This document shows, one piece after another, positions 9,101 through 11,309 of a DNA stretch of 24,000 bases. The notes beneath the pieces were generated by a model. The model saw only the letters and a list, made by a program, of their open reading frames with translations, did not search any database and was not told the DNA's origin. The first letter of the stretch is position 1, and each line of letters opens with the position of its first letter. Source of the stretch: Actinomycetota bacterium (GTDB taxonomy: Bacteria > Actinomycetota > Actinomycetes > Streptomycetales > Catenulisporaceae); assembly GCA_046724665.1 (NCBI GenBank), contig JBKOWZ010000021.1, positions 1 through 24,000 of the forward strand, given 5' to 3'. The translations under genes were made by a program, and so were the position numbers.

Positions 9101-9616
9101 TCAGATGCCCGAGTAAGGCCGGCCGTGCAACTCAGGCCGTTGTTCTTCCAGTTCCCGTAGGGGATCCCACTGGCCACGGCCGCGCCAGCGGTGCGGACGG
9201 CGCACGGCGCGCGACATCTCCGGCGCTGGGACGGCGAGCACCGGGCAGCGAGCATGCCGAATGACGGCGCGCGAGACCGAGCCGGACCAGAACGCGTGCC
9301 ACGCACCCTTGCCGCTGGCGCCGACCACGATCAGGTCCTGCGGATCGGCGGCGGCCGCGCACAGCGCTTCGCTGATCGAGAGCCAGGAGACCCGCAACTC
9401 GACCTGGACGTCGGCGGGAATCACACCGAGCGCGTCCAGGAAAGCCGTTGCCATCGCGGTGGAATCCACGCACGCGATCCCGGTGGTGCGCGTGCGCACG
9501 CCGAGCAGCGGCATCCTGCGGCGGCGCGCCTCGGCGACGGCGGCGCGGATGGCGGCCAGACCGGACAGCGAGCCGTCGACACCGACCACCACACGTGGGT
9601 GCTCGTACTCGTTCAT
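9101..9616 (-). CDS. Universal stress protein (single, divergent Usp domain)
   Basis: The start is ATG 9616 (MNEYEHPRVVVGVDGSLSGLAAIRAAVAEA...) with a strong AAGGAG SD upstream. A further motif is LIVVGASGKGAWHAFWSGSVSRAVIRHARCPVLAVP. The track start at 9715 adds 33 implausible codons. Confidence 0.85.
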   Translation of the reverse strand: MNEYEHPRVVVGVDGSLSGLAAIRAAVAEARRRRMPLLGVRTRTTGIACVDSTAMATAFLDALGVIPADVQVELRVSWLSISEALCAAAADPQDLIVVGASGKGAWHAFWSGSVSRAVIRHARCPVLAVPAPEMSRAVRRPHRWRGRGQWDPLRELEEQRPELHGRPYSGI

Positions 9617-9929
9617 TGTGTGGGCTCCTTGCATACTGCCGCGCCAGCCTGTGTATGGCCTTCGCGCGGATCGGCAATCTTCGATGGTTGTCTGTTTTGG
9701 CCATTGCTTTCTCACTCTTCAGTGTCACGTTGCTGTCGGATGATGGACACGGTCGTACGTCCCGCCGAGGTCAGCCGGAAGACCTTTGTGGATGGCCACC
9801 TCACGACCGCGACCCGCTACGCGATGCGTCCGAGTCGGCCGTGCTCGGCCGATTTGGCAGAGAGTCAGAAGAACGGCGTAGCCGTACTCGTGGAATGAGA
9901 TACAGGGGCGCTCGGTCGGCGGCTCGTTG

Positions 9930-9959
9930 TTAGCACTCGGCCACCCGGACTGCTAGAGT
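9930..9959 (+). promoter_or_regulatory. Candidate sigma70-type promoter: TTAGCA - 18 nt - TAGAGT
   Basis: TAGAGT (9954-9959) fits the actinomycete TAnnnT / TAGAPuT -10 box. TTAGCA (9930-9935) matches TTGACA at 4 of 6 positions. The predicted start near A9966 coincides with an ATG. This is sequence pattern only. Confidence 0.3.
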
Positions 9960-9965
9960 TCCGGT

Positions 9966-10363
9966 ATGCGGACGTCCCCGCTACAAGCAGGGACGGGACA
10001 CTTCGCGGCGACGTTTGCCGCTCCGGGGTTCGCGAAGCTTACTCGGGAGTAACCCCTCTATCGAGACAGCCTGAATACTGACTGTGGTTGAGGGCCTGTC
10101 TAACCCTTTGTTCCACAAGATGTAGCAGAGGAATCCATGCGAGCCTCCACACCTAGTAGTCCGTAAGTGCGGGACTGTCGGTGGTCGCGGCTACCATGGC
10201 GACAATTAACCGAAAGACCCCGGCTCATCGGGTGTCTAGACCGAGAACCAGGGCCTTTCTTGCGTTTGGGACGCGCAGTAACCCTACAGTGCGGCGGAAT
10301 GATCCCGCCACATCCTCTCGGCAGACGCCCTGTGTTGTTCAGGGCCAAGACGTGAGGATATAT
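9966..10363 (+). other. Long AT-richer, hairpin-rich untranslated leader / candidate cis-regulatory or non-coding RNA upstream of the orphan gene
   Basis: No credible CDS on either strand. At least eight short helices can be read by eye (coordinates in findings), including a mutually exclusive pair. I recognised no known RNA family signature. Confidence 0.35.
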
Positions 10364-11236
10364 ATGTCTCAGGATGTCATCGACATTCCGGCCACACCTG
10401 CTGCTGAGCAGGTCGGCGCACTGCGTGAATTGCGCGTGCTGGCCGGATGGCTCTCGCCGGAGGAAGCTGTTCCGACGCTGCTGAGCTACCCGGGAGCGGC
10501 ACCCGAGGAGGCGCACGCCACGGCGGCCAAGCACGCGGCGCTCCGCGCTGCCGTGATCGCTCGCGGGGCCGCTGCGCTGGAGTCCCCGATCGTGTCTGGA
10601 GATCGGACCTTTCTCGATGCGGTGGCGAGCCGCCCGGAGGTGCACGCTGCCTTCTCGCCGCGTCCGATCCGCATCGAGTGGGTCGATCTGACCCGTGTCA
10701 TCGCTGTCCAGAAGCTCGTGTTCACCGACGGCATGGACGACAGGGTCGCCGCCGCAGCCACTAACGAGTCCGCTCTGGTGGAGCTCTGCCTGCCCTCGCA
10801 GCCGGCGATGTCCCCGGTCACCGTCTCGCAGGACAACGACGGGCGCGGCTTCACGTTCAGCTCGACGGATCCGAACCTGCGCCTCCACGGGGCTCAGGTG
10901 GTCGACGGTGCGGTGACCTTCATCGTCGGGACGGGATCTCCGTTCCTCTCGGTGGCGAGTTACCAGGGGTACCACTACCTGCAGAACGGATATCACCGCA
11001 CGGCGGGCCTGCTGCGGCGCGGATTGACGGTGGTGCCGGCAGTCGTCGTGGAGAACTCGGCTTACGACTTCCCCGGTGGCCGTGGAGCCCCGCAGTTCGG
11101 ACCCGAGATCCTCGCTGCGGCCGTGCCTCCGCTGCTCACTGACTACTGGGATGAAACGGTGGCGGCGGGCTCGTTCCGGTCGTACGCGAGTAAGAATCTG
11201 CGCGTGCGGGCTGAGGAGTTCATGACGCCGCGCTGA
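10364..11236 (+). CDS. Hypothetical protein, 290 aa, with a C-terminal ParB/sulfiredoxin-fold-like motif
   Basis: ATG 10364 has GAGGA 5 nt upstream. The frame is open to TGA 11236 with periodic G/C third positions, though more A/T-ending codons than its neighbours. The motif YHYLQNGYHRTAGLLRRGLTVVPAVVV resembles the DGhHR...G...vPv.v core of ParB-like nuclease/Srx domains. The rest is unrecognised. Confidence 0.6.
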   Translation: MSQDVIDIPATPAAEQVGALRELRVLAGWLSPEEAVPTLLSYPGAAPEEAHATAAKHAALRAAVIARGAAALESPIVSGDRTFLDAVASRPEVHAAFSPRPIRIEWVDLTRVIAVQKLVFTDGMDDRVAAAATNESALVELCLPSQPAMSPVTVSQDNDGRGFTFSSTDPNLRLHGAQVVDGAVTFIVGTGSPFLSVASYQGYHYLQNGYHRTAGLLRRGLTVVPAVVVENSAYDFPGGRGAPQFGPEILAAAVPPLLTDYWDETVAAGSFRSYASKNLRVRAEEFMTPR

Positions 11237-11275
11237 TCGACCGCTCAGGGCCGATTAGCGACCAGAAGCAGCAAA

Positions 11276-11305
11276 GGTGCCGGGCGGGTGCTCCTGCCCG
11301 GCACC
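11276..11305. terminator. Bidirectional intrinsic-terminator-like hairpin between convergent genes
   Basis: GGTGCCGGGC (11276-11285) and GCCCGGCACC (11296-11305) form a perfect 10-bp GC-rich stem around a 10-nt loop. The hairpin lies between the stop at 11236 (+) and the hypE stop at 11310 (-). There is no clear U-tract, which is common in high-GC actinomycetes. Confidence 0.6.
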
Positions 11306-11309
11306 AGCG

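Follow-up and report, generated by a model that had tools for sequence, protein, structure and literature searches.

A conserved ~400-nt leader that may conceal the Shine–Dalgarno sequence of a mobile ParB/Srx-like gene in an actinobacterium

Leaderless transcripts are treated by Shell et al. (PMC4633059), and the mycobacterial leaderless short-ORF attenuators presented in the preprint of Canestrari et al. (bioRxiv 10.1101/834739) are polycysteine LL-sORFs. A first-pass annotation of the 24,000-nt stretch of actinobacterial DNA considered here (the window) had proposed a related arrangement at positions 9966-10363, namely a structured leader or non-coding RNA of about 400 nt with mutually exclusive helices and a leaderless 28-codon uORF that starts exactly at +1. 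The letters and positions given in that proposal (TTAGCA, TAGAGT, ATG 9966, the 28-codon ORF to 10050-10052 and each of the helices) are all correct. The ~400-nt structured non-coding leader or ncRNA is also upheld by the comparison with homologous loci, in which its length and a set of predicted helices are kept, and it corresponds to no Rfam family. In contrast to the mycobacterial LL-sORFs, the conserved unit of this leader is the RNA and not a peptide frame.

The reading that we favor, with a probability of roughly 0.55, is that positions 9930-11236 constitute a single-gene mobile cassette, made up of a promoter, a cis-regulatory leader of ~400 nt that hides the Shine–Dalgarno (SD) sequence, and the gene itself. 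The two strongest features of the region, a 48-nt hairpin at 10212-10259 and a pairing between UCCUC and the SD sequence GAGGA, are both missing from the helices listed in the first-pass annotation.

Genomic setting of the cassette

The window, which is contig C42 of a MAG of 4.9 Mb and 70% G+C, contains a 747-nt gap between a Usp gene and a gene encoding a 290-aa protein, and this gap is the region studied. The G+C content of the window drops to 51-61% at 10050-10360. The elements of the locus are as follows.

9101-9616, minus strand: Usp gene (PF00582).
9930-9959, plus strand: predicted promoter, with the −35 hexamer TTAGCA (9930-9935), an 18-nt spacer and the −10 hexamer TAGAGT (9954-9959).
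9966-10363, plus strand: predicted untranslated leader of 398 nt between the inferred +1 (A9966) and the start codon.
10364-11236, plus strand: orphan gene of the cassette (290 aa), with a ParB/Srx-like DGYHR core.

The comparison set comprises the window and three metagenome loci with 52-64%-identical downstream proteins. Two of these loci have full-length leaders, namely L063 (protein 56% identical, gap to the upstream gene 666 nt) and L064/L065 (52%, gap 750 nt), and the third, L005 (57%), is cut 222 nt upstream of the gene. The homology shared by the window, L063 and L064 runs from the −35 hexamer to the stop codon, the flanks on both sides being unrelated and the downstream terminator being different at each locus. 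In the window, GGTGCCGGGC...GCCCGGCACC at 11276-11305 forms a strong hairpin between hypE and the 290-aa gene, which are convergent. It is likely a bidirectional terminator; the hairpins found at the equivalent place in L063 and L064 are unrelated to it in sequence.

The Pat-Usp-Usp block is syntenic in same-genus genomes (G006:C97, G004 and G008; window 9617-11309). The DNA similarity to same-genus genomes ends at ~9630, ~15 nt beyond the Usp start, which indicates that the cassette is not native there. In G006, Usp and hypE are kept apart by 7.9 kb of other genes. The cassette appears to be an insertion or replacement that is peculiar to this genome.

Upstream of the Usp gene, the window carries ACGGTCGTACGTCCCGCCG at 9749-9768, with the counterparts ACGGTCGAACGTCCCGCCG and ACGGTCGAAGGTCCCGG upstream of the orthologous Usp in two same-genus genomes, and this motif likely serves the native Usp promoter as its operator. 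It recurs in part, as CGGACGTCCC, at 9969-9978, on the +1 of the cassette. The operator-like motif is overlapped by a 52-codon ORF (9740-9898, plus strand; GC3 ~0.8), which gave no match in Pfam and PHROG searches and is probably not a gene.

The downstream protein is rare, with ~75 homologues in a metagenome collection of 5.8 billion proteins, and the upstream DNA is common only to the closest branch of its family. Distant members are divergent from an XRE + Peptidase_M78 pair and are found near TIR, SIR2, primase, resolvase or RepSA-Xis-Int genes, contexts that we read as those of integrative elements or defence islands. In other branches (L021-L026, L066) the upstream regions are unlike the leader and contain XRE/M78 operators or a small basic ORF. 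It can be mentioned here that in one distant branch (L023:3760-3987, L024:3820-3987, L022:1-134) a very basic ORF of 55-75 aa (...RNPLTGIWTKRNHGTGRF...GRFKGV...) lies directly 5' of the gene in place of the long leader, and that repeated GTTTGACATCAGC operator-like motifs adjoin the XRE gene in the same branch.

The four leader loci found so far all come from soil-type metagenomes or MAGs, and no other copy was present in the ~580 actinobacterial genomes searched. Nucleotide searches with the intergenic region or its core gave no copy in 60 relatives, 400 class genomes, plasmids and phages, and a covariance model of the leader core, run on 31 family genomes and 151 class genomes, detected no additional one. 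The core 28-mer, with up to 3 mismatches, is absent from 401 phylum genomes, and a related degenerate core pattern has no exact match in viral contigs. A 31-bit match of the covariance model R1 in G002 was rejected, since it is the terminator between convergent DUF3071 and Dyp genes. This DUF3071/Dyp-peroxidase terminator region (L055 = G002:C83:4797-4884; G004:C75:5118-5134) has CGTTTGGAGGACGCGCA in common with the leader core, a resemblance in two same-genus genomes that is at chance level by a reversed-pattern control.

The 290-aa protein has no Pfam, NCBIfam, PADLOC or PHROG match. A profile search gave a weak SbnI match (E = 0.04), and in a Foldseek search ~40 residues around DGYHR of the structure model (pLDDT 90.5) match ParB, Noc, PadC or sulfiredoxin (best E = 0.19), with no structure matching beyond this core. 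The weak profile match and the local structure matches point to an orphan fold with a ParB/Srx-like core, which neither explains the leader nor excludes an RNA-protein partnership.

The promoter near 9930-9959 that the first-pass annotation had predicted is retained in the homologues, as TTAGCA-18-TAGAGT in the window and L064 and as TTAGCA-18-TAAGGT in L063. The DNA upstream of the −35 is unrelated among the three loci, so that the homology begins at the −35 itself. The hexamers, a spacer inside the 16-19-nt range and the conservation across three loci are consistent with a sigma-70/HrdB-type promoter; a strict consensus scan did not call the site (8/12 matches). When the 747-nt intergenic region is shuffled with its dinucleotides preserved, 5% of the shuffles contain a promoter-like site with an ATG at +1; genome-wide, such a site is rare (79 in 9.8 Mb of strand sequence). 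By the shuffle test alone such a promoter is weak, and it appears to be strengthened by its conservation in two independent loci. The hexamers lie in an 8-bp inverted repeat, TAGCACTC (9931-9938) and GACTGCTA (9948-9955), which may be an operator; at its central pair, L063 has C-G, L064 has G-C and the window has C·C. DosR-type GGGAC-N4-GTCCC boxes are not enriched (20 found, 28 expected).

The leader and its predicted structure

Counted from a conserved A located 7-8 nt past the −10 to the start codon, the leader measures 398, 396 and 399 nt in the window, L063 and L064, respectively. In these three full leaders, conserved blocks alternate with variable stretches: 69 of the 100 alignment columns across 10211-10305 are invariant, the next-best conserved blocks being the 5' end and 10115-10139. 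The 3' part, 10208-10363, is 77-91% identical between loci. For the window and L005, the identity is 67% in the coding sequence and 42% at its four-fold-degenerate sites, compared to ~86-90% in 10208-10296. The leader appears, from these alignments, to be better conserved than the mobile ParB/Srx-like gene downstream of it.

No ORF is common in position or frame to the three full leaders, and six-frame pieces of the leader gave no Pfam or PHROG match and no XRE/M78/PIN remnants. A small-protein reading of the conserved block was also considered and rejected, because the substitutions fall at second or first codon positions, or stops intervene (judged partly by eye). The best-conserved block of the 5' half, 10113-10128, includes an ATG-TAG start-stop at 10120-10125, which is also present at the equivalent positions of L063 and L064, with no conserved SD ahead of it. 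The region contains no tRNA and no tmRNA, and 9500-10500 is free of tandem repeats, with only short two-copy repeats at chance level. The first-pass annotation had recognized no RNA family in the leader, and, in agreement with this, Rfam (15) gave no match at gathering thresholds in the window, L063 or L064; an E-value scan of 9550-10450 returned a single chance match, Xist (E = 4.8).

The structural elements listed below are those on which RNAalifold, single folds and column-averaged pair probabilities agree. The 28-codon ORF, the conserved block and the linker are given along with them.

9966-10052, plus strand: window-specific 28-codon ORF, the leaderless uORF of the first-pass annotation.
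9973-9978 with 9990-9995 (span 9973-9995), plus strand: hairpin P1, which has an inner stem of 3 bp and is predicted at matching columns in the three full leaders.
10113-10128, plus strand: conserved block CCACAAGATGTAGCAG.
10152-10192 (~10152-10161 with 10183-10192), plus strand: hairpin P4, surrounding the conserved CTGTCGG (10175-10181).
10212-10259, plus strand: terminator-like 48-nt hairpin H1, GAAAGACCCCGG...CCAGGGCCTTTC, followed by UUGCGUUU.
10261-10265 with 10271-10275, plus strand: small hairpin UGCGU/ACGCG, with 100% of cells paired in four sequences.
10276-10290, plus strand: near-invariant linker, ending in TACAGT (10285-10290).
10291-10311, plus strand: hairpin 2, present in four loci with differing sequences.
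10312-10320 with 10351-10359, plus strand: anti-SD:SD helix, with the SD GAGGA at 10354-10358, enclosing a hairpin 10327-10332/10340-10345.

On the plus strand, the whole 398 nt folds marginally better than shuffles (z = −1.99). This signal comes from the 3' part and not from 9966-10199, which folds no better than shuffled sequence in the window (z = −0.90, 31/200 shuffles), and the 5' half is at the shuffle level in each of the three leaders. Within the 10113-10128 block, CAAGATGTAG is invariant in the three leaders. P1 exhibits a compensation, being U-A in the window and C-G in L064, and P4 has a column-consistent pairing probability in the three leaders, weakest in the window, with stem sequences that differ.

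The helices read directly from the window by the first-pass annotation are preserved in part. GTCCC/GGGAC (as P1), GGCGG/CCGCC (as hairpin 2) and GCCCTG/CAGGGC are kept in the homologues, whereas the competing pair CTTCGCG/CGCGAAG and GCGGC/GCCGC, as well as GACAG/CTGTC, are not. GTCGC/GCGAC overlaps the 3' arm of P4, where the conserved pairing is a different one, and CCCG/CGGG is superseded by the larger H1. The mutually exclusive helices envisaged inside the uORF are consequently not conserved, and they fall in the half of the leader that folds at shuffle level.

Regarding the 28-codon ORF, the −10 ends 6 nt before ATG 9966, a geometry that would fit a leaderless start. This ATG is ATC in both L063 and L064, and the full-length leaders have no uORF in common. 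The ORF has a codon score of −0.54 per codon, i.e., no coding signal, and its peptide, MRTSPLQAGTGHFAATFAAPGFAKLTRE, is without Cys; unlike the mycobacterial LL-sORFs, the ORF is not conserved and has no repeated-codon tract that could represent a run of a sensed codon. Its stop (10052) lies ~160 nt ahead of the terminator-like hairpin and ~260 nt ahead of the anti-SD at 10312-10320, and when 9966-10075 is masked in folding, the 3' hairpins are unchanged and the large hairpin still forms. The ORF is probably not functional as an ORF and seems to be a lineage-specific accident outside the mechanism. A start codon at +1 is insufficient to call a leaderless-uORF attenuator.

The 3' domain behaves differently from the 5' half. 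Folding of 10200-10363 in the window gives z = −2.48 on the plus strand and z = −4.86 on the minus strand. In the four-sequence alignment of this domain, 93.8% of the pair cells are standard, compared to 31-59% when the partners are slid by 1-3 columns. As the majority of pairs are invariant, the formal covariation is weak: there is one fixed-column double change, and the score is matched by 92 of 500 shuffles for four sequences, one of them partial.

H1 has 95% of its cells paired in the four sequences, with stabilities of −18.9 (window), −28.0, −29.9 and −23.3 kcal/mol across the four loci. Its tail, (U/A)UGCGUUU, is found in all four, the U-tract being interrupted by GCG, and the terminator scan did not list the hairpin. 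Pattern scans with the H1 arms in metagenome, genome and viral collections found only unrelated terminator hairpins, at gene ends and beside tRNA genes, and the match of the leader core covariance model in a same-genus genome was likewise a terminator between convergent genes. On these grounds H1 looks like an intrinsic terminator, and its sequence conservation appears to exceed by far what terminators need. The small hairpin that follows has a loop whose length varies 1-3 nt between loci, and hairpin 2 is maintained in L064 via three G·U pairs on the plus strand. Between the two, the linker reads GTGACTCTACAGTG in L005, L063 and L064 and GTAACCCTACAGTG in the window; a core of single-stranded RNA and a second −10 box are both conceivable roles for it.

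The final helix pairs UCCUC (10313-10317) with the SD GAGGA (10354-10358). For the window and L005, the computed probabilities of SD pairing are 0.995 and 0.93, compared to a median of 0.56 for 600 genes, which ranks the window in the top 1.3% and L005 in the top 4.5% of 600 strong-SD genes of this genome. Coordinated changes preserve the pairing in three lineages (AUCCUC:GAGGAU, UCUUCUC:GAGAGGA and UUCCCUUC:GAAGGGAA). The SD regions are GUGAGGAU, GAGAGGAU and GAAGGGAA, and their upstream partners shift in step (AUCCUCUCG, UCUUCUCG and UUCCCUUC), such that all three SD/anti-SD sequence pairs are complementary and the anti-SD pairing has survived sequence change. The SD helix appears to be the clearest case of maintained structure in the leader.

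Proposed mechanism and competing readings

We propose that a sigma-70/HrdB-type promoter, embedded in the possible operator repeat, would give rise to a plus-strand transcript from near A9966, the leader of which would act as a structured cis-regulatory RNA consisting of a 5' hairpin, single-stranded conserved blocks, H1, two small hairpins and the final SD helix. As UCCUC pairs with the SD GAGGA, the default state would block translation, i.e., the ParB/Srx-like protein would be off by default. H1 may additionally end part of the transcripts ahead of the gene. For expression, the anti-SD helix would have to be opened, whether by a protein, which might be the product of the gene itself, or by an sRNA, a ligand or temperature. 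Judged from the sequence comparisons, the most likely mechanism seems to be that sequestration of the SD keeps translation silent until some factor releases it, perhaps together with attenuation at H1.

The main rival, which is possible though somewhat unlikely, divides the region into two units. A free ncRNA of ~300 nt would end at H1, and a second promoter, with TACAGT (10285-10290) as its −10 and the TGCGT..ACGCA inverted repeat as its operator, would produce a short mRNA with an SD-sequestered 5' UTR of ~67 nt. The terminator-like character of H1 and the (U/A)UGCGUUU that follows it in four loci agree with such a division, but the GCG in the U-tract and the failure of the terminator scan to call H1 do not. 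Similarly, TACAGT is invariant and fits TANNNT, but a usable −35 is lacking, and the spacing of the TGCGTT box and TACAGT changes by 2-4 nt from locus to locus. Positions 10261-10296, the most invariant stretch, are conserved at the sequence level, as for protein-binding DNA; however, hairpin 2, whose structure is retained in four loci, would be cut by transcription starting near 10297.

We have also considered that the ~400-nt RNA represents a novel class among the large structured RNAs and acts jointly with the ParB/Srx-fold protein, either as a ligand- or protein-sensing riboregulator or as an antitoxin- or guide-like partner, and not as a passive leader. This we regard as unlikely.

ParB-family proteins commonly bind DNA sites near their own genes, and the conserved blocks might act as DNA, that is, as operator or centromere-like sites for the ParB/Srx-like product or for an element-encoded repressor, the hairpins being incidental inverted repeats. 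The promoter does lie inside an inverted repeat with covarying arms, GTAG-type short motifs recur (by eye), and the very high identity in 10208-10296 would fit DNA-level sites too. Such a role is nevertheless quite improbable: the one-sided G·U-type changes maintain pairing on just one of the strands, the hairpins shift register and change loop length in ways that suit RNA structure better than protein sites dependent on spacing, nothing at the DNA level would account for the SD:anti-SD compensation, and conservation does not extend to the GTCTAGAC palindrome.

A minus-strand RNA, antisense or a divergent sRNA, that ends at hairpin 10259-10212 and acts on the 5' region of the mRNA would be in line with the much stronger minus-strand fold of the window noted above. 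In the window alone, H1 (−27.7 vs −16 to −19 kcal/mol) and hairpin 2 are indeed more stable on the minus strand, which we attribute to A·C mismatches on the plus strand; in L063, L064 and L005, H1 is itself strong on the plus strand. Over the four loci, the cells paired through G·U only number 24 for the plus strand and 5 for the minus strand. The minus-strand hairpin of L005 is followed by GGUUUUCUUUG, but this U-tract is not conserved in the window, and TAGGGT/TAGAGT at 10286-10281 (minus) fits a −10 box, but the sole conserved −35/−10 pair points to the plus strand. The G·U pattern, the plus-strand H1 in the relatives and the conserved promoter together favor a plus-strand leader RNA and make a minus-strand one very improbable.

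It is also highly improbable that the region is functionless, its similarity stemming from recent transfer or recombination of the upstream segment. There are only four copies, in soil-type metagenomes or MAGs, and the cassette is patchy and absent from relatives, yet in these loci the synonymous sites are saturated and the proteins are 52-64% identical, so that a neutral leader should be scrambled; instead, conservation is block-wise, the length is conserved and the substitutions preserve pairing.

The least probable reading is that of the first-pass annotation, in which translation of the leaderless 28-codon uORF chooses between alternative helices and thereby attenuates the gene: the promoter geometry puts +1 on the A of ATG 9966, and an 11-mer at 10091-10101 resembles the 3' arm of the large hairpin (possible 1:2, 2:3 and 3:4 pairings with similar energies of −12.4, −11.6 and −13.6 kcal/mol), but the homologues contradict this reading, and by our own arithmetic chance should yield ~2-3 such 11-mer repeats, one mismatch included, per 800 nt.

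If the single-gene cassette with its silencing leader is real, it would represent an RNA motif of actinobacteria that has not been described before and is more strongly constrained than the protein under its control. The leader would travel with this protein between integrative-element-like and defence-island-like contexts, and its conserved promoter, compensated anti-SD helix and terminator-like hairpin would offer a handle on the silencing or switching of an orphan ParB/Srx-like mobile gene.

Comparison with known systems

In contrast to the mycobacterial LL-sORFs, the distance of ~260 nt between the ORF of this leader and the sequestering helix means that a ribosome on the uORF would not overlap the structure that hides the RBS.

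The leader has in common with ROOL, GOLLD, HEARO/omega RNAs, retron msr-msd and ToxI that a conserved non-coding RNA of several hundred nucleotides directly precedes a single mobile protein gene, in defence-island-like or integrative-element contexts. The leader differs from these in having no Rfam sequence or structure match to them and no reverse transcriptase. Type III toxin-antitoxin systems of the ToxIN kind consist of tandem RNA repeats, a terminator and a toxin gene, whereas 9500-10500 is without tandem repeats.

Similarly to intrinsic (bidirectional) terminators, H1 is GC-rich and flanked by GAAAG and CUUUC-UUGCGUUU, and other bacteria have identical stem types next to tRNA genes and at the ends of genes. 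Unlike them, it is situated inside a leader, between promoter and gene, is over-conserved in sequence and has an interrupted U-tract.

Riboswitch expression platforms and SD-sequestering leaders, such as RNA thermometers and ribosomal-protein leaders, provide a further comparison. The present leader is without an Rfam match and without a recognized aptamer-like junction or ligand; at ~400 nt it is much longer than most SD-sequestering leaders, and its gene is a mobile orphan and not a metabolic or ribosomal one. What it has in common with them is a long conserved 5' UTR with a compensated anti-SD:SD helix, a terminator-like hairpin upstream and conserved unpaired linkers.
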